DNA of 64,000 nt from Owenia fusiformis (taxonomy: Eukaryota): positions 992,001 through 1,056,000 of the forward strand of contig CAIIXF020000001.1 of the NCBI GenBank assembly GCA_903813345.2, in the 5' to 3' direction. Below the pieces are notes generated by a model, which worked only from the letters and a program-made list of their open reading frames with translations, was not told the origin of the DNA and ran no database searches. Made by a program: the position numbers and the translations under genes. This document shows positions 11,679 through 64,000 of this stretch, one piece after another. Numbering within the stretch: position 1 is the first letter of the stretch; each line of letters opens with the position of its first letter.

Positions 11679-12943
11679 TAACTATATCAAATTGTGACCA
11701 ATTTTGACCAATTGTTGGGTGCTGTGGTTATTCTATGGAGGGGAGTGTAACCATATCAAATGGCTGACCAGTTGTTGGGTGCTGTGGTTATTCTATGAAG
11801 GGGAGTGTAACTATATCAAATGGCTGACCAATTGTTGGGTGCTGTGGTTATTCTATGGAGGGGAGTGTAACTATATCAAATGGCTGGCCAATTGCTGGGT
11901 GCTGTATGTATATTATGGAGTGGAGTGTAACTATATCAAATGGCTGACCAATTGTTGGATGCTGTATGTATATTATGGAGTGGAGTGTAACTATATCAAA
12001 TGGCTGACCAATTGTTGGGTGCTGTATGTATATTATGGAGTGGAGTGTAACTATATCAAATGGCTGACCAATTGCTGGGTGCTGTATGTATATTATGGAG
12101 TGGAGTGTAACTATATCAAATGGCTGACCAATTGCTGGGTGCTGTATGTATATTATGGAGTGGAGTGTAACTATATCAAATGGCTGACCAATTGCTGGGT
12201 GCTGTGTGTATATTATGGAGGGGAGTGTAACTATATCAAATGGCTGACCAATTGTTGGGTGCTGTGGTTATTCTATGAAGGGGAGTGTAACTATATCAAA
12301 TGGCTGACCAATTGCTGGGTGCTGTATGTATATTATGGAGGGAATTGTAACTATATCAAATGGCTGACCAATTGTTGCTTGCTGTGGTTATTCTATGGAG
12401 GGGATCGGAGTGTAACTATATCAAATGGCTGACCAATTGCTGGGTGCTGTGGTTATTCTATTGAGGGGAATGTAACTATATCAAATGGCTGACCAATTGC
12501 TGGGTGCTGTATGTATATTATGGAGTGGAGTGTAACTATATCAAATGGCTGACCAATTGTTGGGTGCTGTATGTATATTATGGAGTGGAGTGTAACTATA
12601 TCAAATGGCTGACCAATTGCTGGGTGCTGTGTGTATATTATGGAGTGGAGTGTAACTATATCAAATGGCTGACCAATTGCTGGGTGCTGTATGTATATTA
12701 TGGAGTGGAGTGTAACTATATCAAATGGCTGACCAATTGCTGGGTGCTGTATGTATATTATGGAGTGGAGTGTAACTATATCAAATGGCTGACCAATTGC
12801 TGGGTGCTGTATGTATGTTATGGAGTGGAGTGTAACTATATCAAATGGCTGACCAATTGATGGGTGCTGTATGTATATTATGGAGTGGAGTGTAACTATA
12901 TCAAATGGCTGACCAATTGTTGGGTGCTCTGGGTATTCTATGT
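11679..12943. repeat. 60-bp minisatellite, about 21 units
   Basis: Unit tggctgaccaattg(c/t)tgggtgctgt(atgtatat/ggttattc)tatggag(t/g)ggagtgtaactatatcaaa, in register with the 60-nt lines. Two main variants. Confidence 0.97.
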
Positions 12944-14373
12944 AGGAAGCACAGACAATAAAAAACGTTTCTAGTCGGCTTATAACCCAATAATTCCTAC
13001 GCAATGGGATTTAATGATTAGATAGAATCGCAGGAAACCCATCTTGGGAACGAAAACAATTTTCGTGCCGTGATTGTAAACGACCTGAACTTCCCTGCAC
13101 AGGCTCTAGAGTTAAGTTTTGGCATTTCATTTATATTTCCAAAGTGAGCACGTTGTGCTTTAGCGTGTGGCTTTACGAGTTTATCTTGTGCTGAGACCAA
13201 CTCTACACGTAGGTTAATTAATGGTCTTGGAACTAGATAAATGAACGGAAAGTAAATGTACACAACGAAGATGTATCTGAAGAGGATTTATAACATTGTA
13301 TCTAAGGAATTTTGTCCAATATAATAAATAAGTGAATAATTAAACAAACAAACAAACAAAAGAACAAACGAACAAATAAAGAACTGGTATGCGTTTTTCG
13401 CCCTGATTCATAGAGGCTAAGCTTCTTTTGTCACCATTGGTATGTGGGAAATATGTTGTTTTCAAGAGTACAGTACATGTATTATATCTCGTTACCTCGT
13501 TATGAATGGCGATATAAATATAACAATCATGAAAAAATCATTATCATGGCTATGATTATTTTTTGAAACAGATATATTCGATTGTGTACAAATGTTTGGT
13601 GTAATGTTATTTCATTCATCATGTTTCTATCTCATTTATTTGTTATATCACACGCGCAAATGACACGCTGCCTTGGAAAGCATACATCAATTAATTTCGT
13701 TCAATCATTCTGACAATGCAAAGTATATTCGGTGTCACATATCTAATCAAAGGCGATAACCATCCATAGGCGAGATTGATTACGTCATTTGTCGTGTATC
13801 GATATATATTCCATTAACTCAATTATGTCATTCGATATGATATCGATGTTGTCTACATGTATCGAACTAGCCCTTTTGTATCGATCCTACCTTTTGATAT
13901 TAACAATATCTTTCAAATAAATTCATAAACTCCAATACGCAAATAGTTGTTTTTCTGATCTGTTTAGCATATTAAGATCGCAACTAAGATCTCAACTTTA
14001 CGATTTATTGCAAACATATGACAATAGATTTTTATTTATTTTCCTGATTGCCAAAGACAGAAAAACCTCAATCGCTTTGCGATATCAGTAGTTTAATAAT
14101 GATCCGAAAATATCATTGGTCATATTTTGCGCCATTAATCATGAAACCTTGGTTTTAATTCCTTAAATAAAGAAAATATTGCTGGAAAGTTCCAATTTCA
14201 ATGAATGCATTTGATTTGATTCGGTATTTTCAAAAATCAAACTTTTCATATGTAGCCATGGCACACTGAAAAAATACCTGGAATACATTTCAATGACGTT
14301 TTGTATTAAAATGTCAAAATGTTACTAACAAAATATTAAAAAGAACTTAATATTAATTAATAATATTTTTCAG

Positions 14374-14568
14374 GGTGGTGATATGTTTCTGAAGAAAGCT
14401 CTGCTCTCCGCATATGAAAAAGAATTAGAAAACTTAGAAGCTCTCGAGATGGACCTCAAAAAGAACATTGCATCAATCCTCAACAAAAAAGAGGAACTGC
14501 GCATGAGAAAGCGGCAGCCAATCCAATGCTTGATTAGTGCAGTATCTTGTTATGGCAAGAAGAAATAA
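14374..14568 (+). CDS. AstC: Terminal coding exon of an allatostatin-C/somatostatin-family neuropeptide precursor; predicted mature peptide pQPIQCLISAVSCY-amide with a disulfide ring
   Basis: Acceptor tttttcag at 14366-14373, phase 0. Reads GGDMFLKKALLSAYEKELENLEALEMDLKKNIASILNKKEELRM-RKR-QPIQCLISAVSCY-G-KKK-stop: helical propeptide, basic convertase site, N-terminal Gln, C-x6-C-aromatic ring, Gly amide donor plus basic residues. AATAAA at 14803-14808. The upstream signal-peptide exon was not identified. Confidence 0.85.
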   Translation, partial: GGDMFLKKALLSAYEKELENLEALEMDLKKNIASILNKKEELRMRKRQPIQCLISAVSCYGKKK

Positions 14569-15822
14569 ATCAGGACGGTGCCGACCATACATTATGGTGG
14601 AAACAAGAAAGGCAATACACGCCCTACGCCTTTACTAATATCAAACTGAACGCTGGCGTCTACGACTCTACATCTTTAAGCTTTGGGTTATGCCAACAAT
14701 TAAATTGAATATAATATGTGACCTGTAAAGATCAATGGCATTTTCAACTCATAAACGTGCTATTTGATTTTGTTATATTTGGAAACATTGGTGTATTGTT
14801 TAAATAAATAGAAATTTTAAAAATATACGAACCAACATCTCATTTTATTTTTTCGGTGGATAAGTGAATCGGTATATTTCAAAACAAGTATCGGTATAAA
14901 ATCATTTAATATTCATTAAAAGCTAGTCAATAATGCCTTCCGTGGAACATAAAAACCGTAACATTTTCAGTTGTTCCAGTTTCGAGTACGTGTTAACGCT
15001 ATGATATAACAGTTAGTACCCTGCGTGCAGAGTCTAGTTAAACTGAAGACGAAGCTCTCTTTTAAGAAGTGAAGTCAAACGAATGCAAAGGGTAAACAGT
15101 TAGGGTATGGCAACGTGAATTCTTCTTTGTTTTTGAAGTGATACTGTAACATTATTTAAGGGGGCCTTTAAGAGTTTATAAAAGAGCTTTAGATTTCCTT
15201 AATCTGATAGTAATACAGGCAGGGGTTGTTCTCGTAGCATGCAATTCACGTTAACGATAGATTATATTTTTGGATCATAGCGTTCACACATGATACAGAA
15301 ACTATTTATTAGGTTGAGGAATAAAGCAGATGCGAGTAGGTAGTTACCAGATTCACCACCAGGTGGCTCGTTCGGGTCAGATAGCATGGCGGGTATAGTA
15401 GAAAGTTCCCTTTAACTTAAATTACATCTATTTGCGTGGTTCAATTTTCATATAACCCTTATGTATCTAATAGTTATGCAAATCAAAATATGTCCAGTAA
15501 AGGAAAATGTTATCTGTCCAATACACGAGAAGATAATTCACTTTTTGTGATTTTGTAACATGGGGTCTATGGGGAATCAACCCGAACAAGAAGTCACATT
15601 TTCAAAAAAAATTAAATTTTCAAAGTTGATAGACAGTTTTCGAAACCATATTTCTAGATGTACTTTTACATGCAGATTTCAAATATGAGATCACTTTGAC
15701 TGAATTTTGAATATTTAATGACGTAAATCAAGATTATTTCTACTCGCATCTAGTCTATTGTCATAGAAGCTTAACATAGTCGAAACTTCAAAGCTGAATG
15801 TCCACGGTAAAGTATTTAATTC

Positions 15823-17872
15823 AAAAAAACACTTTCATACTTTGGATTTGGCCCCTCAATAATAAAATGGATTCAAACTTTTTACAAATCAATAGAAAGT
15901 TGCATCATGAACAATGGCTACTCATCAAACTACTTTTCTCTAGAAAGAGGAGTGAGGCAAGGGTGCCCACTTAGCCCTTACCTTTTCATAATTTGTGTTG
16001 AAATTCTAGGAACAAATATTCGCGTTAACAAGGACATAGAAGGAGTGAACATACCAGGAGAACAAGCAAAGATATCGCAATATGCGGATGACACATGCCT
16101 CTTGCTAAAAAACACCCAATCACTAAAAAAAAGCACTAGATATCTTTAAAACTTTCGGAGCTTGTTCCGGACTTAACATCAATGTCACCAAAACAGAAAT
16201 AGCAACAATTGGAAGCAACGTAGATCAAGACAAAACGGAAGAAGACTGTCACACCTTGAATCTTGCCATCAAGAGAGATGAAGTAAATGTTCTGGGAATT
16301 ACTATACCGCTGGACGGGAGAGATATTAACGATCTGAATTTTCCAAAAGCCATTCTGAGAATAAATAACATTATAAAAAGTTGGACCCCAAGGAACATAA
16401 CCATTATAGGAAAGATAGCTGTTACAAAGGCCCTGCTTATTGCACAGATTACATACATGTCCTCCATACTCAACCCACCAGAAAACACTATCAAGGAAAT
16501 TGAAGATATCCTCTTTAAATTCATTTGGAGCAATAAACCAGACAAAATTAAAAGAAGGGTCCTTATGAACTCATATGAAGAGGGAGGCCTCGAAATGATT
16601 CATATTAAAACATATATACGCAACTTAAACCTTAAATGGATCAAGAAACTAATGGATGAAATCTGTAAAGGGAAATGGAAAAACATATGGAAAAATTATA
16701 TCAAGAACTTAAATGAAGAAAAAATATGGGAGTATAATCTCAAAGAAGACAACAAAGAGATAAATAGGCTCCAACTGAATTCCTTAATGCACTGCTACAA
16801 AAACTGGTGTAACCTAAAGTTTGAATCAACAAGACAAATAAAATGCCCCAAAGAATCCAACATATGGAACAATGACTGTATAAAATCAGGTGGACAGGTG
16901 ATGAATTTCAAAACATGGCAAGAACATGGTATTCACACCATTCAAGATATATTCGATAAAGATAAACCAATGTCAAGAGAACAGATCATCAGAAAGTACA
17001 ACTTTCAAACCATATGTTTTCTGGATGTCATAAAAGTGACATCAGCAATACCAAAAGAATGGAAAGATCGAATGAAGGACAAAAGTACACAAGACTCGGA
17101 GCCAAGCATTAAGGAATGGTTCACAAAGTCACCAAACAAGATGACATACAAATACCTACTAAAAAAGAACAATATACTAAACCCAGCAATAACGACACAG
17201 GAGAAGTGGGAAGAAAAGCTACAAAACCGGAATATAACCTGGAAAAAAATATACCTAAACACAAGGAAACTAACAGTTAACATCAGACATATTTGTTTCC
17301 AATACAAGCTCATATCGAGAATCATATACTTCAACAAAGGCTTATTTGAAATGAAGATACCCAACGTATCTTCCCCAATCTGCGATCTGTGTAAGGAGGA
17401 ACTGGACACGATAGAACATGGATTATATGACTGCGTAGTTGTAAAAGAATTCCTAAAACAATGCAGCAGTATATTGAAAGAAGATATCCCGAAACGAGAT
17501 AGTTTTCTTCTTGGAACAAACAGCCAACCTGAAGACATCTTACTGCACCTGAAACAAAAAACATATATCTACAAGTGTAAAATGAAAAAGAACCGCCCCA
17601 ACATGACAGAATGGAGAAACTATGCAACAAATGATGAACTTATAGAAAGTACATGCGCAAAAAATAAAACACATGACATTCTATGGACAAAACTCAGGAT
17701 GTATACAAAAAAATGAAGAAAACTGAAGACCACTCACATTTTAAGCTATTTTTATTTTTCATATAATACTGGTGCCCCCGTACCATTCATAATCAATAAG
17801 TATTATGTATTTATATAAGTGACTAAGAAATCAAATATACTGTAAACAAAATGTTTTACTGTGAATAAATAA

Positions 17873-17903
<31 letters not shown>
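15823..17903 (+). mobile_element. 5'-truncated L1/Tx1-clade LINE retrotransposon (RT C-terminal half and Cys/His domain) with poly(A) tail and TSD
   Basis: RT motifs GVRQGCPLSPYLF and QYADD (about 16078-16092), ORF continuing to 17716 with CDLCKEELDTIEHGLYDC, AATAAA at 17864, A-tail 17880-17906. 14-bp TSD aaagtatttaattc at 15809-15822 and 17904-17917. One +1 frameshift in an A8 run at 16125-16132. Confidence 0.95.
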
Positions 17904-17906
<3 letters not shown>

Positions 17907-18549
17907 GTATTTAATTCGATGAAAATTAGAAATATAGAAGTCAACATTTCCAGGTATCGCCGCCATTTTGAGAGAAGGTAACGTTCGATACTGACTAGTG
18001 ATCGAGGTGATCATGGTAATAATAGTCAGTTTAAGCTTGTATATAAAATCGAAACGCCAACCTATACGTATGGCCAATTGTCCATACAAATGCATCGATT
18101 ATATATTGTCCGTTCACGTTAGGTTGTGAAAAACATTGCAAGCAGAAACTCCCTATTGTTGGTGTAACGCGAATAAACAAAAATGGTGAAGATGATCATG
18201 AGTTAGACACACATCCACAGCCTCACAAACATTCCGAGCCTTGACATCTACAAATATGCCTATACAGTAAAATATCTGATTTTGTAGCTTGTCTTCCACA
18301 ATACTATCATACTGAACATGCCATCTTTCACTATCAAAATCCTGAAAACGTATGTACATGTATATATAGTGACGAATAACCATATTGCTTCAATGTTTAG
18401 AAGTTCAGAAGTTCAGAATATAGATTTGGCTGCAAGGATCAAATTTTTAGAGGCAGACATTTTAGATAATGCAATAACAGACATTCCATTTGAATATGCA
18501 GATATCCATTGCAAGGGATTATCTCCAATCTTAGCAATGGTAAAGCAGC

Positions 18550-19950
18550 GGGTGTAGATCAGATACTATAGTACTATACCACATGAATTTATTATATACT
18601 CGAAAGATACTTTAATCAAACCAATATAATCCATCCATTCACCCTTATCAAAATGTATGAAACCATGCCAGATGAATGTAAATATGGCCTATTAATTGAA
18701 ACCCTTGCACAAAAGTGGTGATTTTGAAGATATTGATTCTTACAGATGGATAAACGATCACATCTTATGTTAACAAAGTCTTTTCGAGCCTCCTTAAGAA
18801 TTGAAATCATATTACCTTTAGGGGGAAACAATCACTTGGTAATTTCCAAGGTGCTTTAATATCGAAAAGGATATCCTTGTGAAATCATATCTTTTCACTA
18901 AATTTTTTTGTGGTATTCTCGAAAGCTCTCGATGTTTTGGATAGATACATGTATATGTTTTTTATAAAATTATGGAAAAGGGTGTACAAGGTATATGTTG
19001 GAGAAGTCATAGACACTTTTATTCCAATGTTCAAAACAAAGTTATTTTCGGTATTTTTGCACTGACTGGTTTGAGTCTAATGCTGGTGTCAAGCAAGGGT
19101 GCATTATCTCTCGAAATATCTTTTTAATTGTGATGTCAGACTTTGAAAATAGCCTAATGAATTAATGCGGAATTGATCTTTAAAGGAGCAAATTACATGT
19201 TTCCTATTTGCAGATATCATTGAATATGATTTGAAAATTCTTCTCCAAACTGAAAATAATTTTGGTATCAAATTAGAAAGAGACTCGCACCACATAACAA
19301 TTTTGTGATGGCACGTAAAATATATAATTATACCTCAGCAACTCTTACTGAACATTTCAATGTTAATCGCATTGAATGTGGAAACACAATATGCAAGTCA
19401 ATGCTCGAATCAGAGATACTTCCCAGTTGGCCAATTTGGTCTACCTTAACGAAGGAATCAAATAAAACCCTGAAGCCCAATTCGGTATTTAAAATGAAAA
19501 CTTGCCCAATCAGCCTTGATTGTACATATTGGCTGGAGGACCCTGTATAGAGGATTATGAAAAAACGCTTTATTGATTATTTTACGTATATTAAAACAAC
19601 GACTTCTATGGATTGAAAATTCAAATTCTTAGCAAGATGTAACAAATTTGCATTACTGAGTTATGAATCACAAAGCAAGACCGATGGAAAATGCATATTA
19701 TGTAGATATAATGTAGATGTCTCTGTTTAACATAGACTTGTAAAGTACTCTTTCTTAATAAAGTAGAAAGAACACATTTCTATTGTAAATTATTAGACAA
19801 ATGCATTGAGAATGTGTTAGATTACTTTACATAATGAACTTCAGAAAATAAAATTAATTTTATGTTTGGTGATGATGTTTGTAGCAATGGGAGCACGATC
19901 AATTTTGTTTTGTATGTGAACTATTAAATATTTTAACAAAGATGTTTAAA
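18550..19950 (+). mobile_element. Old, heavily degraded non-LTR retrotransposon (RT) fragment; boundaries approximate
   Basis: Broken translation around 18980-19220 gives GVQG..W...YSNVQNKV, TDWFESNAGVKQGCIIS and CFLFAD, i.e. RT motifs with frameshifts and stops. Confidence 0.6.
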
Positions 19951-20176
19951 CATCACTTATAGGAACTATTTGAGATATTTTGTACTATGTCCAGTAGAAG
20001 TGCATGTCTACATAAAAAATTACTGTATTTGGGATATTCAGGATGTAATGTGCCTTCCATAGTCCCCCCTTGTGAATTATTTCAGGGGTATGCTGTATCC
20101 CGGTCCCGCTCCTGAAATATTTTTTTCCTTTTTTTTTAAATTTTTTTTTCAAAGAACGAGTGTCTTTAAGACCCTA

Positions 20177-21312
20177 CAGGGTGTCCCGAAAGTATGCCCC
20201 CCCCCCTAGGCAGACATGTTCCATTGTCCCCATAGTATGTGTCATATATCGTTTTAAAGCTTATCCAAAGTTACATTGATTTGCCAAGTATCATGGTTTA
20301 ATTCCCAAATGGGAAAAAGTTACAGTCATTTTAAAAGTTAGCGTTTTGTCAAAATAAAGTTCAATTTTACACCACATTACTAGTCAATGAGTCCCCCATT
20401 GGCCATGTTAACAGCAGCAATTATTTTCAGTTATGACCTTAAACAGTGAAAGGCCCTTCAAATAGGGGTGTGGACTTTTATAACCCTCTTAAAACCTGTT
20501 AAGGCACATTAGAAGAGTTTCCTTAGATTTTCTACCCTCACCGCTCTCTTTTTCCAACTCAATATCCATCCGAAAAGAATTGCTGCTATTAAGATGGCCC
20601 GGGAGGACACATTGACTTTTGATTTGGTGGAAAATTGAACTTAATTTTGACCAAACACTAAATTTTGAAATGCCTGTAATTCTTTCACATTTGAGAGTTG
20701 AACCATGATACTTGGCGAATCAATGTAACTTTGTGTATCTCATACTTGAGTGGGTTTGGGGTAGATATCACCCGGGAATACATATCGTATCTGAGGAGCG
20801 GGCAGGATATATTGTATATGTCCCGCTCCAGGCCAAATGCGGGCAGATAAAATATATCCATCCCGCTCCCGGGAATTTTTCAAAAGTTTAAAAAAAGTTT
20901 AAATATCAAAAAAAATTTAATTTCAAAATTTAATTATTTTAAGTTTAAATGTTACAATTTCATTGTATTGAACAAAAAGAATATTACAAAAATGTTAAAT
21001 CATAAATATCTTGTCATTTGAAAAAGGTGGAAAAGGTTATATTTACCCTAAACCCACTCAAGTATGAGATACACCAGTTATGCACGGTCGGTTTGGATAC
21101 ATGGAATATCCCTTGGGATATACAATACATCTTCCCTCAGTCCCTTTGGTCCCTTGGGAAGATATATTGTATATCCCTCGGGATATTCCCTGTATCCAAA
21201 ACCTCCCAGTGCATAACCCCTATATACGCTTTAAAATGATATATGACACATACTATGACAATACTTGTATATGTCTGTCTAGGGGGGGGGGGCATACTTT
21301 CGGGACACCCTG
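20177..21312. mobile_element. Tc1/mariner-type foldback MITE carrying a nested insertion (20735-21222)
   Basis: TIRs cagggtgtcccgaaagtatg-polyC-tag.cagaca with TA TSD (20175-20176, 21313-21314). The inverted arms extend over 200 bp once the nested element is removed. Confidence 0.9.
20735..21222. mobile_element. About 490-bp non-autonomous element: IR-bounded body plus terminal hairpin module
   Basis: gtatctcatacttgagtggg...cccactcaagtatgagatac, followed by hairpin ttatgcacggtcggtttggatac...gtatccaaaacctcccagtgcataa. A near-identical inverted copy lies at 37375-37865. Confidence 0.85.
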
Positions 21313-22211
21313 TATACTAGCCCCCGCAAAATTTAGAAGAAATTGTACAGAATATCAAAGAAAGGACTTTGTTTGATAACCACGTTCAAAAATTCTGACC
21401 TTCATATTTCAAAATATAGGTCATTCTATCAACATGTATAAAATGACCTTTTGAAGGAAAAATCACTCTTTTTACATCATTATTCTCACTGTTTCTATTT
21501 ATCATCAAAATAATCATTATTTACAGTCATTCAAGACTTTCTAATTGATCCTCTTGGTATTATCCTACATAATAGTGACAAAGCATAATGGGCAACATTC
21601 GAAAACACATAAAATATAATAAGTCATAAATGCAAAAATACTGAAAAGTGATCTTCTTTATACTTTATTGAGATCAATTGTCTACAAAAAAGTTTGCAAA
21701 ATTGTGACAGAAAAGAATATTGAGTTTTTTAAATTACAACACAATGAGAAAGAACAAGGGACAACATTAAGAAACACATGAAGTAATTAACAAGTCAAAA
21801 ATGCATTTCAGTCAATTATATTATTGATCTGCTTTCTTGAGAGCAATTGGTCATATACAGTTTGCATTAAAGTGGAAGTGAAATACTGAATTCATTATTT
21901 CACATAAATTATGACAATTTCTAAATGGTTACTCTGGACTTTACATAACTGTTGTTCTTCTGTAGTTGAGCAAATGCATGTGTTTGTTCATTATAATAAG
22001 CGACTCTATGAGGTATCATCATCTTCTTCAGATGACAACATTTCAGACATATCTTTTGATTTTAATATGTCAAACTTTGTCCAGTTCTTTTTGCTTTTAT
22101 ACCCCTTGTGCCTACAGCCCTACTGTTTGTGACTTACAGTATATTTCTTCTGCACAATAAAGTTGAGCTGGATTTCTAAATATGAACATTGGTATGATCA
22201 GCCAGTGAACT

Positions 22212-22665
22212 GTGATAATAAAACAAAGATCTGTTTTAGCTAAATTTCGATCTGGCACTTTACCTTTAGAGATTGAAACGGGTAGGTGGCAGAATATACC
22301 AAGTCAAGAGAGATATTGTAGGCAATGTAAGAATGAAATAGGTGATGAGTTTCATTTTTTATTCAAGTGTAAAGTTAATCATAAATTAAGAGAGGAAATG
22401 TTTTGTAAAGTAAAAGGTATATATGATCTATTTGAGTCTTGTGATAATGATAAGAAAACAATGTACTTATTGAATTCTAAATCACTCTGTAAATATGTTT
22501 CAAATTTTTTGCTTTTGTCTTTGGAGGCTAAAGTTAGATTAAAGTAAGTGTTAATTCTGACTTATCTGCTTATAATATGATTGTAATTGTGTCTCATAAG
22601 CCTTTGGAGGCTGACCGTATAATTACGGGTGACACTGTAATAAATAAATAAATAAATAAATAATA
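22212..22665 (+). mobile_element. 3' end fragment of a non-LTR retrotransposon with (TAAA)n tail; clade uncertain (CR1/L2/RTE-X-like)
   Basis: ORF 22212-22547 LAKFRSGTLPLEIETGRW..ERYCRQCKNEIGDEFHFLFKC is a typical LINE ORF2 C-terminus. A short UTR follows, then (taaa)n at about 22639-22663. Confidence 0.85.
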
Positions 22666-23182
22666 TAAAAAAGTATTCATTGACAAAAATGACGCCTGTC
22701 ATATTAAGATTATTATAATTGTACAACAATCATCTCAATTTTGCATGTACATTTATATGAATGTATAGAAAGGAATTACATGTTATTATGTTTTTTAGAG
22801 CCATGGTAAAAATATATGCTTCTCTAGAGGTCATGCTTCAGTGCAACCATAACTATTAGTTCATAAAATGATAATATGAAATAAGAAAATATACTTGAAT
22901 ATATAAAACACAATTGTCACAATCATTCTAAGGATTTTCAAAATGGCTGACATCATTTTATTTCATGCTGAAAATTGCATAAAGGTTCTATTTTTGCATG
23001 ACGCCTGGTCCTTACCTAGATTTTTATACGTATATCTCAAGATGTACCTTAGAAGTAAACTATTCCCTACTACATATAACTTTCTAGGTAAGAACCAGAC
23101 GTTATATGAACAAAGCAAGAGTTTATCATGACCTTCCTCTCTCTAAAAATAAGTAGGTCAACACAATTGCAAACATAACTAT

Positions 23183-23563
23183 TTATCCTATGCCAAGTAG
23201 AATTTTAGGGAGATAAGAAGGTAAGATATATCCCGTATCCTGATTTTGAGGTTTCAATATCCAGAACCTCCATATCTCCCGCTTCGGTGCATATCTTCCC
23301 GCTTCGGTGCATATCTTCCCGCTTCCGGTAAGTAGTGGAAATGCAATAAAATGACTTTGCATATGAATGATTTGTTTATTTTTGCACCTTGTACTATTGA
23401 AATGGCCATATGCCCCTGAAAACTCTACTTGGTATAGGATAAAGCAGTTATGTACGGTCGGTTTGGATATTGGGTTCATCCCATCCCTACGGTCCCTCAG
23501 GTAGATATGCATATCTCCCTCTGGATAAATCCCATATCCAAAACCTCCCAGTACATAACCCTT
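23183..23563. mobile_element. Related IR-body plus hairpin element with a different body
   Basis: IR ttatcctatgccaagtaga / tctacttggtataggataa, internal 20-bp tandem (tcccgcttcggtgcatatct), then the same ttatgtacggtcggtttggata...tatccaaaacctcccagtacataaccc hairpin module. Confidence 0.7.
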
Positions 23564-24896
23564 ATTTATGTGTACAAAATATTAATCCAATGAGTGTATA
23601 GAGTGACACAATCAAACAATGGGACATCTGCCAAGTTGGGTTTATACATTCTTGAGATATTTTCTGAGACTGATAAAAAATTCACATTTTCACAGGAAGT
23701 GATACATACCTCCCAAATCAACCAAAATATACTTATATCAGTAATCTGGAATGTTTTTTATTGCTATTGCTCGAAAATTTACATATTTATCTACAATTTG
23801 ATCTTACATATCAAAGAAATTAACGACATTGCATTTTTCAAAAAATGTTAAGTGATCCCAGGGGTGTTTATAGCCATTCATTATATTTTCAAAATCTTTT
23901 TGTTAACAATTTGTAAACAATTTTTTTTTCACATTTTTTTCAATTATTTTTAAACATTTATTTTTTCTTTTTTTATTGAAAATCTCGCAAACGTTAAGGC
24001 CCAGAAAAAGCGTACTAAGTATGTTTTGGAATTTTGGATCTTTTCAAGGTATGATGTACCTAGAACCTCAGTAGGTATGAAATACATCTGTTACGGGCGG
24101 GCCCTCGGGAGATGCACATATTTCCCTTGGGATAAACCCTATATCCAAAACCTCCCAGTAAATATAACCCTTATATATTTCGAGAACACTACAAAAATAG
24201 ACACCAATATCCTCAGAATCAGTGTAGAATCATGTAGTACAAACAACTGACATAATGAGAATTTTGATAGACGGCAAAACCAAATTTACACTCCTATCTA
24301 TTCCGCTCACATCCCGTAATATTGTAATATTGGGCTATAGTCCTTGGTATAAAATTCTAGAACCTAATAAAACAGTTCGTGATTCATTACGACGTGTCGA
24401 TATTTAACCCGATATATTGTAACGCAATAAGTTATGCATCTCTAACTTATTTAATGAAATTACATTAGCAGCCGACATTGTCATTGTCATTGAGTATTTT
24501 TTTCTAAAAAGGACAATATGTTAATTAAACACATTAAAATTCAAATCGAAAATTCTTTAAGAATACTGCAGTTTAGTCTAGTAATATGCCATACAGTATG
24601 AGATCTACCCTGATTACTTCGAGACAAGGTATCAGGTTCATAAGTGACATCTATTTGAGCTATATTGTAATATCCATTGATTAAATTGTGAATTTGTAGA
24701 TCTAGAATCACTAAGAATCGACTGAAAACGAATAAAAGTTGCCCACATTTCAGCATGGCTACACCTCCGCCGGAAGCAGATATGGAAACAATTTTTGTTT
24801 TCTTTAGTTTATCACATATATCCATGAAACAACGCCCTGGTATTTCGAGATTTTGAAAAACAGATGAGGCCAGTAATTCAGCATTTTGTTGAAAGA

Positions 24897-25060
24897 AAAA
24901 GTGACCAATGAAAACTTAACACTATGCTCTGCACGGCCACAAATGCTTCTCATGGTTAATCTACACATAAAAGTGACCAGCGCCATGCCTAGCACCATGC
25001 TCTGCACGACCACAAATGTATTATATATCATGGTTAATTCACACATTAAAGTGACCCAGT
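24897..25060. repeat. Degenerate 70-80-bp tandem duplication (two units plus a fragment)
   Basis: aaagtgacc...atgctctgcacg.ccacaaatg...tcatggttaat..acacat occurs twice, then aaagtgacc again. Confidence 0.7.
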
Positions 25061-25423
25061 GAAGCTGAACATAACTTACTGCATATACACAATGTGACAT
25101 CAAAATGGCGATTGGTACTCATCCTTACCTTTAGGGTCTGGTGTAAAGGATCGCATGATATAACCAAGGATTGATCACCGGTATGCGTAGAAGGCTAATT
25201 ATGTCACAACATGGTATTCAAACTACATCCGGACGCGTCAATCTCTTATACAACGGGTAAGATCTATTGCAAAGGTGTACACCACGCTGTAAAAATGTTA
25301 AATATTTTACTCCAAAGGAAGGTATATGAGGTCAAAGCGCGAGTCTTAAATAATTGCATTTTCCAATGTAATTGATAAAATAAAGCGAAACACTTTTCTC
25401 GGGTACAAATAGACTGTGTTGTA

Positions 25424-25953
25424 CAGGGTGAGCCAAAAAAGGCAACCCAAACAAATGTTAATAACTTCGTCCTCCAACATTCATTTAAAATCATATTTGG
25501 CACAACTGAAACTTGTTCAATGTTCTTTTAAGGCCATTTTAAAAACATGCTCAAAATGCGAAAAATCACTTCCCAAAACGGTTATCTTTGAAGCTATTTC
25601 AAACCCCCGGGGCAGGGTAAAATTGAACCCCTCTTGGTACATCCTGGTTACACCCTAAGAGAAGCATTTGGGAATTGAAACAAGAGATAAGAAGGATGAT
25701 TAGAGATGTCTGTGACCAAGTAGTCAGAACAAATTCACCCGGTTCATTCAAATTAGCCTCCACAGTTGAGACATTTTGAGGATGTTTTGTAAAATAGCAA
25801 TAAATTAGTGGTCATTTAAAAATGGACCAATGAAACTTTATATAATGAAAGAACATTTAATGATGTTTAATTGTGCTAGATATCATTTAAGCCCTTCCGG
25901 GACAACTGAGTTATTAACATTTGTTTGAATTACCCTTTCTTTGGCTCACCCTG
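25424..25953. mobile_element. Tc1/mariner-type MITE
   Basis: TIRs cagggtgagccaaa.aa.gg.aa..caaacaaatgttaataac / gttattaacatttgtttg...tttggctcaccctg with TA TSD. Confidence 0.88.
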
Positions 25954-27134
25954 TACTATTGAACAATTGAGAGTGTCGGGCCAATTAAATGGATCCATGA
26001 TCTGGCGAAGTCATTAGATTTCAGGGTTAATTGGACGAATTTCAGTTTTATTTTATAGCAAGCCATGCTCTGAATCATAAATAAAAAAACACATTTGAAA
26101 ATGAGATTGAAACACAGAAAATTGTGAAGGAAGAATATTTGTCATTTGGGAAAAGCTTTGAGTGAATGCCCCACGTCTTGCATACAGGCATACGTATATA
26201 ACACAAAGTGCAAGACTCTTAACTGACGAGGCAAGATGGCAAATGGAAATATCAAATCTGATGATTATTTTTACGATACTCTTTGTCATAATTTCAAATC
26301 CTTTAACTTTATTTTACTCAAATTCCTGAATTATTTTTAGAATATTTCGTTTAATAGATGATTTTCATTTGAATCTTATCAAGAAACATCAATGCAATTC
26401 AAGATTGTGACAAAATTCCAAAACAGAAATGAAACATAAAATTCCAAAACATTAATAAAAAGCTTTCCTTGCGGAGGGAATTCTGTTCCTGATTTAAATC
26501 ATTTTCTTGCAAACCCATTGATTCACTTCTATAATTAAAGGTGTCAGTCTTACGACAATGTAGAAGAAAGATTTAGACTAAAATAAAGTGATATGTGAAA
26601 AATAAAAAAAACTATTCATGCATATATTCATATGGGAAGTTTTTAATACAAGGTTTATCTAAGCGAAATGCCATATATTTACCAGAGGGACAGTAGGGAC
26701 CGATCGGGGGTTGATGTATTGTATTTACAGAGCGAAATCCCTCGGATGATATCGATATTTATTATATTGATATCCTTGTGATATTCCCCATATCAAATCC
26801 CTCATTGTGAATAACTTATTTATATATTTTGGATTAGAATAGTGTGATTGCGTCTACCAATTAGACCTTGAAGAAAAACGATGTATCCATGCATTTTGAT
26901 ATCCGCGAGTGGCCGAGACGTCAGGCAATTTAAATGGCTTTCAAAGAAAACACAGACCCTTAGCTCGAACGTAATAAAGCTCAATTCAGGCCAGACATTC
27001 TTTCAAAATAATGCAGTTTTCACACTTCTTAGGAAAAAGAATTGAGACAGGCACCCACCTCGCCAAAATTGTACCCAAAGTTTTTATTCAAACGTTTTTT
27101 CAATTGCAATTGTGAAGTCGTATTCATCCCTCTC

Positions 27135-28507
27135 ACCAAGATTTGCCACGCCAATTTGATTTTGCATCATCTTTCACCCAAATTGCCATGCCAATTTGAT
27201 TTAGCATCATCTTTCACCCAGATTTAGCATCATCTTTCACCCAGATTGCCTCGCCAATTTGATTTTGCATCATTTTCCACCCAAATCGCCATGCCAATTT
27301 GATTTTGCATCATGTTTCACCAGGATTTGCCAAGTCAATTTGATTTTGCATGACTTCTTACCCAGATTCCCTGGCCAATTTGATTTTGCATCATACTATA
27401 CCCAAATTGCCATGCCAATTTGATTTTGCACCATCTTTTAATCCAGATTACCACGCCAATTTGATTTTGCATCATCTTTCACCCAGATTGCCACGCCAAT
27501 TTAATTTTGCATCATCTTTCACCCAAATTGCCATGCCAATTTGATTTTGAATCATCTTTTACCCAGATTGCCACGCCAATTTGATTTTGCATAGTCTTTC
27601 ACCAAAATTGCCTCGCCAATTTGATTTTGCACCATCTTTTACCCAGATTACCACGCCAATATGATTTTGCACCATCTTTCACCCAGATTGCCATGCCAAT
27701 TTGATTTTGCACCATCTTTTACCCAGATTACCACGATAATTTGATTTTGCACCATCTTTCACCCAGATTGCCATGCCAATTTGATTTTGCACCATCTTTT
27801 ACCCAGATTACCACGCTAATTTGATTTTGCGCCATCTTTTACCCAGATTGCCACGGCAATTTGATTTTGCATCATCTTTCACCCAAATTGCCACGCCAAT
27901 TTGATTTTGCATCATCTTTCACCCAGATTCCAACGCCAATTTGATTTTGCATCGTCTTTCACCCAAATTGCCTCGCCAATTTGATTTTGCATCATCTTTC
28001 ACCCGGATTTGCCACGCCAATTTGATTTTGCATCATCTTTCACCCGGATTTGACACGCCAATTTGATTTTGCACCATCTCTAACGCAGATTGCAACGCCA
28101 ATTTGATTTTGCATCATCCTTCACCTAGATATGCCACGCCAATTTGATTTTGCATCATCTTTCACCCGGATTTGCCAAGTCAATTTGATTTTGCATCATC
28201 TTTCACCCAGATTGCCACGCCAATTTGATTTTGCATCATCTTTCACCCATATTGCCACACCAATTTGATTTTGCACCATCTTTCACCCAGATTTGCCAAG
28301 TCAATTTGATTTTGCATCATCTTTCACCCATATTGGCACGCCTATTTGATTTTGCATCATCTTTCACCCGGATTTGCCAAGTCAATTTGATTTTGCACCA
28401 TCTTTCACCCATATTGCCACGCCAATTTGATTCCGCATCATCTTTCACCCGGATTTGCCACGCCAAATTGATTTTGCATCATCTTTCACCCGGATTTGCC
28501 TCGCCTA
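27135..28507. repeat. 40/41-bp minisatellite, about 34 units
   Basis: Unit gccacgccaatttgattttgcatcatctttcacccagatt(t). Confidence 0.97.
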
Positions 28508-30368
28508 TTCTTAGAACCAGCTAGCTACGCCTTTGCATTGCATATTAGAGTTTGGTTAGGGATTTAATCTTATATTCAAAGCGCAGCTTCACGCTTATAA
28601 TTTTAGATATGATTATTGGCGTGTGCTCTGCAAACAGATTTCATCTCACACTGATTGAAAGGATTTCCTGGCTAAGAATATCAAGTTCATGTCCTTCCCT
28701 TCTTTTAATAGACCTTTCTCATAAATCCTGTCATCTTTTGGTACATCAAGTACACCAATGAAGCTATGATATATTACATTAAGTTTAAAGGTTTGAATAT
28801 TTTAGCAAATGTGTTATTCACTTTTGGTTGTGTTGTTCATTTTTGTTGGTATGTGTTTGTGTTTGTTATCTTCACATTTGTTTGTTTCATCACAAAGATA
28901 ATGATAAAGGTCAGGGTTCAAGCTTCCGATTCTTTCAGTATGTTCCAGTTACTTCCAGTTTCACACAAGAGGGGGAGAAACCCCAGGGTTCAAAGATGAC
29001 ATACGCTTATAATGTAAATCTGTATCGAGATGACATCGTCGCTGATTGGTTTAGCGAGTCGATCGTTGATTGGTTTAAAACTAGGTCAATTTGAAAACTT
29101 TAAAAACCAGGGGGGGAGATCTCCCAAAGTTCAGCCTTCGTATTCGATCACGTGGTACTCACGTGCTAGATCCATTTAAGGCTTACATGGCCATATACAT
29201 ATGTATAGGAATCCAACTGATTGTCCGCCATTTTGAATATCATGTGATAGATCCATATAAGGTTTGTATGACCATATAGGATGGCTAAGGGGAATCCCCG
29301 AATACGAAAGAATATGATAGCTATTATTATGGGAGCTACTCATTTCTTCTGTTTAAAAATCAAGGTGGAGGATAAACAAATATACGTACCTTTGGGAAAG
29401 GAGGTGCGCGAAGGAGGAAATCGTATGTCAATTGAATCATGGGGTTTTCCCTCTTAGTTGCACACAGAATTTAAATAAGATTTCAAAACTGAATAATATT
29501 AGCAGGGTTTTTAAGAGTAGGCATCGGTGAAATATGGTATAATTTGACACAATATGGATATATTTCTATACCTCTTCTTGAAAATAACAACGCATGCCTA
29601 AATGAGCTTCAAAAAAATAGGCATTTATAAATACATTTTCCATTCCACAGAAAATACGTTGTAACTTTTTAACATTCTTAACATAACTTTATTCAAATAT
29701 TCACATCAAATAAATTCAACAGAAAGCACAGTTTACAATGCGTGCCCACTTTCGCAATCATGCATGAATAGTTTCAGCAGGTCTAGTAGTTCCATCATAT
29801 TACAGTATCTGAGTATGATTGGGTCGTATTATCGCCCCGGGTATACGATGGGCTCGAGCAGCTCATGGAATAAATTGAGCATGAATACTGCCTGTTACAT
29901 ATTCGATTCTGAAATGATTTAATCTTTAAAATTGTACACATCAGGGTCACAGTTAATGCTCTCTAAGAAATCTGTAACCCTGGATATATAGTATTTTTCT
30001 AAATTATCACGATCAGTCAACTGCATCATCAGTGTATTAAATCATTGTTTCCTCACCGGCATATCCGGTAATATAACGTAAAGAACTAGCAGAGGATGGG
30101 TAGAAATAACATAAGTATCGTCCAATCAGAAATCGAGGTTTTGATATTTGCAATATATAATTCACGCAACAGAGACATTTGGTTTAAATGTGGTAGTAGC
30201 TGGTTCGTTCAGTGCGCCCCTTCCTTGTGATTGGGCAAAGAGGAGGATATACCCAGAATTCATTGAAGCACCTAATAGAGATTTACATGGAGGTAATTGT
30301 AGGATCACATTCGACGAAAAAGCAGACTCATCTGGTTCAATTCGTACAGTGGTTCCGCTCCTTGTAGA

Positions 30369-30602
30369 TTATCTCCGCTTTCTTCTTCCAAAGCACGATA
30401 CGGCCGACCAATAACATTGTTTAGCTTCTTTATGAGTTCTTTGTCTTTGTCCTCCCCCTCTTTTAATGAGACTGTCATTTTCTTCCAGGGAATTAAATTC
30501 AACATTCATGTCAGAGTTTCGTGAAGGAATTTGCTGTTCCATATTGTCTAGGGCATCGAGAAACTCAAGCAATCGCATCAGGAGAGGCTGGATAGTTTCC
30601 AA
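30369..30602 (-). CDS. Terminal coding exon of a second allatostatin-C-family (AstCC/AstCCC-like) precursor; predicted peptide GGGQRQRTHKEAKQCYWSAVSCF-amide
   Basis: Strong acceptor ttttttcatttgtttcag (AG at 30604-30603), phase 0. Reads LETIQPLLMRLLEFLDALDNMEQQIPSRNSDMNVEFNSLEENDSLI-KR-GGGQRQRTHKEAKQCYWSAVSCF-G-RRKRR-stop: acidic propeptide, dibasic site, C-x6-C-F ring, amidation signal. Minus-strand AATAAA at 29688-29693. The upstream exon was not identified. Confidence 0.82.
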   Translation of the reverse strand: METIQPLLMRLLEFLDALDNMEQQIPSRNSDMNVEFNSLEENDSLIKRGGGQRQRTHKEAKQCYWSAVSCFGRRKRR

Positions 30603-35079: not shown

Positions 35080-35875
35080 ACGAGTATACGACTAACTACT
35101 TTGCCAAACGAGTGTGCGACTTTGATAATAAAGGGTATGTGTGTTGAACGAATGTACGGCTTTGCCGAACGAGTGTACTACTGTGCTACACCAGTGTACG
35201 ACTGTTCTAAACGATTGTACTTAACGGTACGAGTATACGACTTTGCCAAACGAGTGCAATACTTTGCTACATGAGTGCGCGACTATGACAAACGAGTGTA
35301 CCACTTCGCTACACGAATGTGTGACTTTGCTAAAGGAGGGTACGAATGTGTCAAACGAGTGTACGACTTTGCTAAAGGAGGGAACGAATGTGTCAAACGA
35401 GTGTACGACTTTACTAAAGGAGGGTACGAATGTGCCAAACGAGTGTACGACTTTGCTAATGGAGGGTACGAATGTGTCAAACGAGTGTACGACTTTGCTA
35501 AAGGAGGGAACGGGTGTGTCAAACGAGTGTACGTATTTGCTAAAGGAGGGAACGAATGTGTCAAAAGAGTGTACGACTTTACTAAAGGAGGGTACGAATG
35601 TGTCAAACGAGTGTACGACTTTGCTAATGGAGGGTACGAATGTGTCAAACGAGTGTACGACTTTGCTAAAGGAGGGAACGGGTGTGTCAAACGAGTGTAC
35701 GAATTTGCTAAAGGAGGGAACGAATGTGTCAAAAGAGTGTACGACTTTACTAAAGGAGGGTACGAATGTGTCAAAAGAGTGTACGACTTTACTAAAGGAG
35801 GGTACGAATGTGTCAAACGAGTGTACGACTTTGCTAATGGTAATCGTAGAAAGAGTACGATTTTGTTAAACGAAG
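35080..35875. repeat. 21/42-bp minisatellite with a 168-bp higher-order repeat
   Basis: Unit cgagtgtacgactttgctaaa+ggagggtacgaatgtgtcaaa. Degenerate 21-bp monomers lie on the left. Confidence 0.95.
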
Positions 35876-37865: not shown

Positions 37866-40800
37866 AACTCTATATAGTCACACGGTATGACTCTCACTTC
37901 TAATTGCACATGAGAGCTGCATTGTTCGAACCAATTAAGTAACTTTCAAGAAAAGATGAAAAATATGTTATAAGTATTGCCTAAATCACTTTAAATGTGC
38001 GCGTGTAATGACTTTCATGGTGTCATATTCCCTCGCTTAGCCAATTTCTGAGTGAAAAACGTCAGCTTGTGGGTTTTTTAACCAAAAATACTTAGTAACG
38101 AGACAACGATTTATGAATACAGTTCCCACAAGTCATGATCATTCTTCAAGATGGGGCTTCGTTGAGATTAGAAGAGAAACGAAATACCCTTGGACTAACC
38201 CTAAAGGCTGCAACCTTTTTGTAACACTTAGTCGCAAGGGGAGGGTCATTTGGACCCAACTCTGACTGATTTCAATAATGTTGGTATTGTTGTTAACCTC
38301 ATTCAATTAACTTTTCACATATTTATTCTTTTTTTTAAAATAGGTCAACAAAGGTCAAATCGAGGTCAACGCGACCTAGGGGTGAACAATTTGACATTTT
38401 GTGATAATTCTTTTACAGGATTAGAAACAAGGTACAGTAACTACAAATATTTTATGATTTTCATTTTTTGTTGGCATCAATTTCCAATCACCTTAATTTT
38501 ACGCCAAAAAGTGTCATTTATCTGTGGCTCGGGCTAAAAATAGGTCTAAAGGAGGCATAACAAAATTTCGCAAAAAAGTACGATTGAAAAAATCGAGGGG
38601 GGATCAGACATTAGGCTAAGGATGCCACGCGTTCGAGAATCGCATTTCTCAAATTGGATGACTATCAAGGAACAAAACAAGAAGCTTTTTATGACAATTA
38701 CACTGGGTGAAAAATATTTTGTTATAAGGACCTTTGCTTCGAAATTTTAGTTTTAGTTTGGAAACAATATTACGGACACGGTCATAAGTGATAACTGGCA
38801 AAATCAACCCTGGCGAACGTGCAATTACAGTAGGTCGAAAATTGATGATAAATCTGATGAATTTTTGAAAATCGACTTTCCCATATAAACCAATCGGAAA
38901 TGGAAGGTTTGCCGCAAGTCATATGACAGAATATTCATTTATCTAAGTTCTTGCAAAAATACAACAATGGTAGTCGATTGAACTTGCTAACTTTATTTAA
39001 TAAAAAGTTGAGACGTGTCTTCAAGTTAAAAAATATTATTTTTCAAAAAACTTCTCCCGTTGAAATAACATATAGTAATTTTATCATTTTGTAACATCAG
39101 CCTTTTCTAGCGCAAATTTGGTTACGGTAGATTGGAACTGATTTTAGTATGCCTAGTGTAGGCCCGCAAATATCCCAAATTGTGTGCTAAAAGGGGTTGA
39201 TTAATTCCACAAAATGGTACACGGCTCATAATACACCATTTTAAAGCTAATGACTTTGGGATTCCAGAAATGAATTTTAGTCTTCTGTGACGCTATATTT
39301 TTGGGATTGAATTAAACTCAGATATGTATTTCTGATTTTTCCAATTTTTCCTTTTTATCAGAGAACCACTGGAATCCGATATAATAATCATAAGACCACA
39401 GAGTATCACCTTTGTGCATGGTCCTATCCCGGCGGGGTCCTATACCTTATGCACATATTGATGACAGCATGGGAATAAAGTTTGACCGAGCGTTAGTAAG
39501 AACAATGTTTGAACCAAACATGTGACATAAAAGTTGATAAAGTTTTGTCTTTCAAACAAACGAAGTAACACCTGGACATTCATAAAACCATTGCAAACAT
39601 CAATGGGCCTCCTCAGGAAACGCCCGCATCCCCACCAAGGCTAAAATATAATTTTTGGAATTAGAAAACAGGTATTATCAGTAGAAATTATAGTAATAAA
39701 AATTGTAAATTACAAACCTGATTATTTGTTGTTTTCTCTTTGTCATATACGTAGAAAGCGTCAGTATATTTTCCACAAATCGAAATAGTCATTATAGTTA
39801 AATATAAGTACTTTACAGCCAAACGTCCCCCAAGCATCCCGTCTTCCACACAGTCGCACAGGAACACGCACGTTATACTTATCTAGAGATATTTGATTCC
39901 TGATTTACTGATACAATCTATGACAACAATTGGTTCTTCAATTCTCTAATTACTTTGAACTGTGTACCTCACGATTAACTTGACAGCTAAAGCGCCTTTT
40001 TATTTTGTCTCATTTGTCGGCAATCAACACTTTAAGAATTGCAACTAATGATGATTGTCTCCTCCGGAACTTCTTATTAATATTTTACGCCCTCAGTCAG
40101 TTGATCTCTCGTCTCTATGGCTGAATAATATTCAGTGGATGCGCTCTCCGGAAACTCTATTTTATTTGCCATGAATGCGATACCTTGTTAGTAAAATGAC
40201 TAATAAGACATAGCCCAATTACAAATACTATGAGTATTGACTCTTCTTCCAATTATATTGATCCAACTCCAGATATTACGGTCATAAAAGTGGTGACCAA
40301 AGTCGGTCAGAAGTCGTAAAGATAGGCAGCTGATTACAACGTCCCATTATAGCAAGCCACCGATGTAATACACCATTATAAAGTCGGGTCAAAGTATATA
40401 TCATTGTAAAATTTACGTCCTTTTCTATGACGGAAGGAAAAGAACATGTCCGAAAATCCAGGTTACTGAGACTAACTTTCGCTAAACGAATTTGTTCCCA
40501 AGAGCTCTACTCACACTACCCCGGGATTCTTCACGCTAATCAGTTGTTGAATTGTACTCTCTCCGGGTTGGGCACAACACGACCCTGACAGAACAGATCA
40601 TTGTTGCTATTTGATGCCAGAGAATCCAATGCATTGCTAATTAACTGGATCATGATTAAAAATGGCAAATAGGCAAGACGAGGAATCCTATGAATCCAAT
40701 AGATTTTGAAAATGAAACGATTTTGAAAAAATGCTTTGCTCTTGATCTATCATTCGATTTGAAAAATAATAGTGATGGGCTGCAGATTGATCAACCAACA

Positions 40801-45264: not shown

Positions 45265-63239
<17,975 letters not shown>

Positions 63240-64000
63240 CTAGAAAACAAGATTTTACCAATACATTTTAGAATTTCACACAATTTAATTTTCAAAACAA
63301 GGACATAAACATGCAAAACAAGTCTCCATCATGAAAATGCGTAGACAATGTTTTTACAGAGAAGATTTTAGGACAGAAAATCCAAAATGGCTGCCTTAAC
63401 ATTGACCCAGAATGCCCAAAAACTAATTAGTTTGAGATTACAAAGAATCATCCCTGAAAAATTCATATTGATCCATCAAAGAGTATGCCTAAATCACATA
63501 GACAAGATTTTACAATGGAAGCTTCAAAAATGGCTGAAGATCAAAAAGCAGATTTTTTTACTATTTTTTTCTTTTTACAAAAATTATCACATTTAATTAC
63601 TGTTAACAGTAACAAGGGTTTTCATACAGGACACCTGAAATTATTTTATAGTTTAATTAGGAAAAATTCAAAAGCATCTTATGAATTTGATAATGTTTGC
63701 AGACAACAATTTTAGCATTTGACTTCAAAATGGTTGACATCGAGTCAAAGATAGTACCGCATCTGTGAGTACTCAAAGTTATCTCTGTGAATTTTAAGGT
63801 GACTATTTCGAATATTAAAGCATATATCATCAGTTGTGTGAAAGTATAAACTAGTACATGGAGTATTGTGCTTGAACAGAATGCCAGCCTGAAATAAGAA
63901 CCAACTGATGCGTTGGCCACAAAAACTAGTCACAAAAATGGTAACTATAACAATATGTCTAAATGTGTTATTGATGACCAAGTATTTAAACAATGACAAT

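Follow-up and report, generated by a model that had tools for sequence, protein, structure and literature searches.

A convergent pair of probable allatostatin-C-type neuropeptide genes beside mTOR in the annelid Owenia fusiformis

Introduction

Does the annelid Owenia fusiformis possess two linked genes for neuropeptides of the allatostatin-C (AstC) type, and if so, how old is the pair? The question is raised by a stretch of 64,000 nt of contig CAIIXF020000001.1 (the window, meaning the whole stretch of DNA that was analysed), in which two short terminal exons on opposite strands each end in a basic cleavage site, a peptide with a cysteine ring, a glycine, a run of basic residues and a stop codon. 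The lineage of Owenia is reported to be the sister group of all other annelids (PMC10880339), and AstC/somatostatin-type signalling is described as central to the debate on the evolution of bilaterian inhibitory peptide hormones (Koch et al. 2022; Zhang et al.). We propose, with a probability of roughly 85%, that the two exons belong to two functional two-exon genes for AstC-type prepropeptides, which are convergent in orientation and are old local paralogues.

Gene structure and public models

Gene 1 lies on the forward strand and gene 2 on the reverse strand, and the two converge tail-to-tail with 15,800 bases between their stop codons. Each corresponds to a public gene model, P0004 (CAH1772247.1) for gene 1 and P0003 (CAH1772248.1) for gene 2, the accessions being consecutive and on the same 62.2 Mb contig. 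The features of gene 1 within the window are:

14372..14373, + strand: acceptor AG (tttttcag/GGTGGT) at the 3' end of the last intron in gene 1, phase 0; the match of P0004 to the window begins at precisely 14374
14374..14568, + strand: terminal exon of gene 1, 64 codons plus the stop TAA 14566-14568, equal to residues 40-103 of P0004/CAH1772247.1
14506..14565, + strand: processing module of gene 1, with RKR 14506-14514, QPIQCLISAVSCY 14515-14553, the amidation donor Gly 14554-14556 and KKK 14557-14565
14803..14808, + strand: candidate polyadenylation signal AATAAA of gene 1, read from the sequence

The open frame of gene 1 (14374-14565) is preceded by an AT-rich tract ending in cag and reads GGDMFLKK...RMRKRQPIQCLISAVSCYGKKK. 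Its C-terminal part, up to the stop codon, reads ...EELRMRKRQPIQCLISAVSCYGKKK, and the exon terminates as RKR-QPIQCLISAVSCY-G-KKK-stop. A second AATAAA (14564-14569) overlaps the stop codon, and both a very short 3' untranslated region and one of ~240 nt are conceivable. When the first 39 residues of the gene 1 model were cut into six-residue words, none of these occurred in any of the six frames of the window; exon 1 of gene 1 must therefore be located before the start of the window, over 14.3 kb away from the acceptor. Gene 2 is complete within the window, as was seen when its public model was mapped back onto it:

39718..39867, - strand: exon 1 of gene 2, 40 residues (MLGGRLAVKYLYLTIMTISICGKYTDAFYVYDKEKTTNNQ), with the ATG at 39837-39835 and an end at CAG/gt, as in P0003/CAH1772248.1
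30603..39717, - strand: intron of gene 2, 9,115 bp, phase 0, with GT 39717-39716 and AG 30604-30603; it encloses the tandem array 35102-35837
30369..30602, - strand: terminal exon of gene 2, 77 codons plus the stop TAA 30371-30369
30372..30464, - strand: processing module of gene 2, with KR 30464-30459, the predicted peptide GGGQRQRTHKEAKQCYWSAVSCF 30458-30390, Gly 30389-30387 and RRKRR 30386-30372
29688..29693, - strand: candidate polyadenylation signal AATAAA of gene 2, ~680 nt past the stop codon, read from the sequence

The frame of the terminal exon (30602-30372) follows the acceptor tgtttcag/TTG and reads LETIQ...KEAKQCYWSAVSCFGRRKRR; its C-terminal part, before the stop codon, reads ...LIKRGGGQRQRTHKEAKQCYWSAVSCFGRRKRR, and the exon terminates as KQCYWSAVSCF-G-RRKRR-stop. 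At the other end of the gene, an in-frame TAG (39885-39883) is located 16 codons upstream of the ATG.

In a word-indexed search, the terminal exon of gene 2 was identical over its full length (100% identity) to a 127-residue NCBI protein (1 of 1 candidates), and that of gene 1 was likewise 100% identical over its full length to a 103-residue NCBI protein (1 of 2 candidates). Both proteins are titled 'unnamed protein product, partial' [Owenia fusiformis]. Both public models add an exon 1 with a hydrophobic, signal-like N-terminus before the terminal exon, and both begin a few codons 5' of the ATG rather than at the upstream stop, a position that would be typical of open reading frames called on assembled transcripts. 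A search of sequence runs returned 17 rows that contain part of the gene 1 exon, none of them recorded as RNA.

An earlier interpretation of this DNA, made from the letters only (the sequence-only reading), had described two short terminal exons on opposite strands, ~15.8 kb apart between stop codons and each behind a phase-0 acceptor, in a probably non-arthropod animal. The coordinates and sequences are as it described, the public models use both terminal exons with exactly the acceptors that it predicted, and the source is an annelid. Its remark that such exons are easily missed by annotation does not apply here, as both genes are consecutive NCBI entries, though unnamed. It had also called for a signal peptide on the full open reading frames; gene 1 has a signal-like N-terminus with a hydrophobic core, and gene 2 a candidate one with a weaker core, each with a charged n-region. 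From its first Met, gene 1 reads MDTTR followed by a strongly hydrophobic core (Kyte-Doolittle 9-residue maximum 3.73), and the candidate cleavage sites ALS/A and LSA/P fit the -3/-1 rule; gene 2 begins with MLGGR followed by the weaker core (maximum 2.17) and a possible cleavage site at TDA/F, which fits this rule as well. For both genes this analysis was heuristic, not SignalP.

Could modules of this kind arise by chance? Translated in six frames, the window contains two matches to the strict pattern C-x6-C-[FYW]-G-[KR]2+-stop, and none of 200 first-order Markov simulated windows contained any. Its back-translated DNA form likewise gave two matches in the window, and none of 100 dinucleotide shuffles contained any match. 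A relaxed AstC-ring pattern recovered these two sites only, compared with a mean of 0.07 per simulated window (100 simulations). These three controls therefore exclude a chance origin of the pattern. With the relaxed pattern, no third AstC-like exon was found in the 64-kb window, the 15.8 kb spacer included. A possible third paralogue at 62687-62637 on the reverse strand runs out of frame across an mTOR exon/intron junction and was set aside as a chance match, and the other 10 matches to 'C-x6-C-aromatic near stop' lie in repeats or are without AstC-like ring residues. A metagenome scan with the back-translated motif gave a single locus (L001), on a GC-rich, bacterial-looking contig without AstC context, which was likewise judged a chance match.

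Divergence of the two copies

How are the two genes related to each other? When gene 1 was compared with gene 2 by BLASTP, only the peptide module aligned (9/19 identical, E 1e-05 in a single comparison). The proregions are not significantly alike, as 178 of 2000 shuffles reached the observed local score, and by the same measure an L-E-x-L-[ED]-A-L stretch that by eye appears common to both was rejected as not significant. In the Q-C...G core, 8 residues are identical, but the codons agree for only 2 of them; one Ser is encoded by AGT in gene 1 and by TCG in gene 2. Because the proregions have diverged and the codons differ while the peptide core has been kept, these sequences fit an old duplication in which the ring would have been maintained by selection, and argue against a recent duplication or gene conversion. 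The duplication had been called old in the sequence-only reading as well, and both the dissimilar proregions and the codons of the core agree with this.

Predicted processing and action

We infer the processing, amidation, disulfide bond, secretion, receptor and any physiological role of the two products, the processing steps of both precursors following general prohormone rules. Each precursor is predicted to consist of a signal peptide (from exon 1), an acidic spacer and a single peptide at the extreme C-terminus, flanked by basic cleavage sites. The precursor would enter the secretory pathway, where the signal peptide would be cleaved; prohormone convertases would then cleave before the peptide, at RKR in gene 1 and KR in gene 2, and after it, in the basic run, a carboxypeptidase would remove the C-terminal basic residues, and the exposed Gly would be converted into a C-terminal amide. 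The two Cys would form a disulfide that closes a six-residue ring, and the N-terminal Gln of the gene 1 peptide would probably cyclise. The predicted products are thus pQPIQCLISAVSCY-amide for gene 1 and an N-terminally extended ...KQCYWSAVSCF-amide for gene 2.

For gene 1, the pyroglutamate, amidated and disulfide-bonded form has a predicted monoisotopic mass of 1403.6577 Da. The N-terminal end of the mature gene 2 peptide is uncertain because monobasic sites are present inside the predicted peptide; the longest form has a predicted monoisotopic mass of 2623.2285 Da, and shorter forms are possible via the internal basic residues. Both products may be hormones, neural or endocrine, that are secreted and signal through AstC-type (rhodopsin-gamma) G protein-coupled receptors. 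AstC-type peptides are reported to be inhibitory in insects and excitatory on starfish muscle (Zhang et al.), and because these effects differ, the sign of the action of the Owenia peptides should not be assumed.

Assignment to the AstC family

Do the two genes belong to the AstC family? In published definitions, an AstC peptide has exactly six residues between its two Cys and a Tyr or Phe directly after the second Cys, and AstC precursors are described as having a single ring peptide, placed C-terminally and preceded by a basic cleavage site. The rings of Owenia are C-LISAVS-C (gene 1) and C-YWSAVS-C (gene 2), six residues in both genes, followed by Y and F, respectively. Each precursor has one C-terminal ring peptide, with RKR or KR upstream and Gly, a basic run and the stop codon downstream, and, past the signal-like N-terminus, contains only the two Cys of the ring. 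The gene structure is of the two-exon AstC type as well: gene 2 has a phase-0 GT-AG intron, and gene 1 has a phase-0 acceptor and a two-block model whose exon 1 is beyond the window. The AstC gene of octopus is reported to consist of two exons and one long intron, an arrangement that the Owenia pair resembles in its two exons and gene 2 also in its one long intron; for spiralian ASTC genes more widely, the reported gene structure matches that of the Owenia pair (Koch et al. 2022).

The peptides themselves point in the same direction. Scallop AstC is given in the literature as GHIQCLVNLVACYamide and Aplysia AstC as SHYSSMCMFNVVACY. Spiralian AstC and the Owenia pair have in common a signal peptide (a predicted one in gene 1 and a candidate in gene 2), a spacer, one C-terminal peptide and a C-x6-C ring, followed by Tyr as in gene 1. 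The gene 1 peptide agrees with scallop AstC at 7/13 aligned positions plus the Tyr-amide (a by-eye count), including the I-Q-C-L start and the aliphatic first ring residue. For decapods, AST-CC is reported as GNGDGRLYWRCYFNAVSCF and AST-CCC as SYWKQCAFNAVSCFamide, arthropods having three AstC paralogues. The gene 2 peptide agrees with decapod AST-CCC at 8/13 positions plus the Phe-amide (likewise counted by eye), with K-Q-C...A-V-S-C-F-amide in common. The rings of Owenia have Ser and then Ala, whereas those of spiralians are reported to have Asn and then V/L/I.

Other Cys-loop peptides have to be set against this assignment. Peptides of the protostome somatostatin/urotensin-II-like (SSRP-like) family are described as carrying WK within a Cys loop of four residues, and their genes typically consist of three exons, of which the second and third each encode a part of the peptide (Koch et al. 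2022). SSRP-like peptides and chordate urotensin-II combine a four-residue loop with WK, and somatostatin has a loop of 10+ residues with FWK; the Owenia peptides have neither combination, their loops being of six residues without WK, and in the two-exon models the whole peptide is in the last exon. That both genes belong to the SSRP-like family could be argued from a feature search of the ESM Atlas, in which urotensin-2 clusters were among the matches (score 0.89 for gene 1 and 0.91 for gene 2), and from Fig. 5B of Koch et al. 2022, a figure with SSRP and ASTC panels whose key to the species lists an Owenia sequence. Against the loops, the missing WK motif and the position of each peptide within one terminal exon, we consider this reading to be hardly credible. 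Our results therefore agree with the sequence-only reading in placing the pair among AstC/somatostatin-family peptide genes, since the published AstC features are present and those of SSRP-like and urotensin peptides are absent.

The same ESM Atlas search placed an arthropod 'Allatostatin C' cluster at the top for gene 1 (score 0.93, 195/256 features), which is a lead only. Scores of ~0.9 were reached by 4-10 of 100 shuffled proteins, and all rankings from this search are therefore treated as leads.

Several observations weigh against our proposal. For gene 2, the top ESM Atlas matches were unnamed arthropod clusters (0.93 and 0.92) and no AstC cluster was named. The word-indexed searches gave no named AstC precursor and returned Owenia proteins only (0/21, 1/1 and 1/2 candidates); phmmer with P0003 against 1.84 billion representatives returned only the match to itself; and Pfam gave a sub-threshold MksE match for P0003 and nothing for P0004. 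Family membership is therefore carried by architecture and motif, not by a significant alignment. Conventional homology searches usually come back empty for short, fast-evolving prohormones. The rings also depart from the common form: the Asn of 'most' AstC rings and the FxP motif are absent, and both rings read x-x-S-A-V-S, in which Ser stands in place of the Asn and Ala in place of the Pro. An Asn in the loop and a motif of the FxP type are described as common in AstC and not strictly conserved (Koch et al. 2022), and arthropod ASTCC/CCC are reported to have Ala instead of the proline, where lophotrochozoan peptides have V/L/I (Zhang et al.). At the level of the genes, the window does not include exon 1 of gene 1, which is known, like its splice junction, only through the NCBI model, and the candidate signal peptide of gene 2 has a hydrophobic core of modest strength that is broken by Lys and Tyr.

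These last two points, the long distance between the gene 1 exons, and the 'partial' flag and lack of a name on both NCBI models could also be taken to mean that at least one of the loci is not expressed in the predicted form, being a decaying pseudogene copy or an artefact of gene modelling in repeat-rich DNA. Both frames are, however, intact; their modules for cleavage, amidation and termination are complete, and their splice sites fit the consensus. The core has been kept while its synonymous codons have drifted apart, as would be expected under purifying selection on two old copies, and the model starts just 5' of the ATG would suit open reading frames called on assembled transcripts. We therefore regard a pseudogene or an artefact as very unlikely.

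It may also be that only gene 1 is an AstC orthologue and that gene 2 encodes a lineage-specific or unrelated amidated peptide with a Cys ring, which converged on the AstC form or has a different receptor. The ring of gene 2 opens with an aromatic residue, and annelid and mollusc ASTC are reported to be aliphatic there (Koch et al. 2022); in arthropod AstC, AstCC and related peptides, however, an aromatic residue at this position is described as usual. The silence of the ESM Atlas on AstC for gene 2 and the dissimilar proregions would both be expected of an unrelated gene, and the two Ser codons (AGT and TCG) belong to different classes, so that the Ser in common need not be inherited. Against this stands the finding that the two sites are the sole examples of their kind in the 64 kb window. 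On balance, an unrelated gene 2 appears distinctly unlikely, and both genes are treated below as AstC-type.

Origin of the pair

When did the AstC-type pair of Owenia arise? Among 27 molluscs, a single AstC precursor gene is reported, the sole exception being T. granosa, which has two genes with identical peptides; Owenia differs from molluscs in having two diverged genes. AstC is known in annelids, and the literature lists one precursor each for Platynereis, Capitella, Helobdella and Hirudo. The nemertean Lineus longissimus is reported to have both AstC and AstC2, the latter confirmed by mass spectrometry (Thiel et al. 2021). AstC2 is therefore, like the Owenia pair, a case of a second AstC paralogue in a spiralian, although in a different phylum. 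In arthropods, a local triplication of the AstC gene has been described (Veenstra 2016). Arthropod AST-CC/CCC and the Owenia genes are alike in the Ala at the AstC proline position and in the physical linkage of the paralogues; Owenia differs in having Ser instead of the ring Asn and two genes, not three, within 64 kb.

The Ser-Ala common to both genes would suggest that the duplication is of lineage-specific origin. This argument is weakened because the Ser codons are of different classes and the AGT of gene 1 is one step from a canonical Asn codon. Alternatively, the Owenia pair may descend from an AstC duplication that preceded the arthropods, gene 1 corresponding to spiralian AstC and gene 2 being an orthologue of arthropod AstCC/CCC. 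The features that can be cited for this are the aliphatic first ring residue and Tyr-amide of gene 1, and the K-Q-C, aromatic residue and A-V-S-C-F-amide of gene 2. We consider so early a duplication unlikely. Under it, the linked 'arthropod' AstC cluster would already have been present in the protostome ancestor; the annelid lineage that branched off first would have retained it, nemertean AstC2 would perhaps be another remnant, and molluscs and most annelids would have been reduced to a single gene.

A published account of Owenia neuropeptides (PMC10880339) covers FVamide, RYamide, RGWamide and MIP only. In published main texts, with figures and supplements outside the search, we found no mention of either peptide, of an Owenia AstC or of an annelid AstC2. 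A figure or the supplements of Koch et al. 2022 may already include one of the two peptides or an SSRP-like peptide of Owenia. What is added here is modestly new, a diverged, convergent AstC pair beside mTOR in an early-branching annelid, and is not a new kind of system. The linked pair is nevertheless a concrete locus to seek in other spiralians, and could date the AstC duplications and the deeper roots of the arthropod AstC/CC/CCC cluster. Two unnamed public gene models also receive names, and two peptides are predicted with masses that can be used in peptidomics and receptor de-orphanisation.

Genomic context

What surrounds the pair? The sequence-only reading had placed the two genes in repeat-rich DNA, and three tandem arrays and a retrotransposon fragment are indeed present; the mTOR gene occupies the far end of the window.

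14569..30368: spacer between the two stop codons, 15.8 kb, with a non-LTR (long terminal repeat) retrotransposon open reading frame fragment and a 40-bp tandem array of 32 copies (27221-28509) inside
11705-12928: 60-bp tandem array, 20.3 copies, 93% matches, in the last intron of gene 1, ~1.4 kb upstream of the terminal exon
16127-17716, + strand: C-terminal fragment of a non-LTR retrotransposon, ORF2-like, in a 529-codon stop-free frame; zf-RVT E 2.3e-4, sub-threshold in Pfam
27133-28509: 40-bp tandem array, ~32 copies, 85% matches, in the spacer between the genes
35102-35837: 42/84/126-bp tandem array in the gene 2 intron, with ~200-codon open frames on both strands that are not genes
~45265-64000, - strand: multi-exon mTOR (TOR kinase) gene, identified by exon 62418-62089 against human mTOR residues 1132-1218, E 2e-36
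45769-45554 and ~45279-45265, - strand: late mTOR coding exons

Gene 2 is encoded on the same strand as mTOR, ~5 kb downstream of it, and because the two adjoin, mTOR can be used as a synteny anchor for the pair. The array at 11705-12928 yields long spurious open reading frames on both strands, and a poly-A run (17880-17906) follows the retrotransposon frame. An identical 13-residue translated string occurs on the reverse strand at 31743-31702, in the gene 2 intron, and at 50603-50562, in an mTOR intron, which suggests that the two sites are copies of one dispersed repeat.

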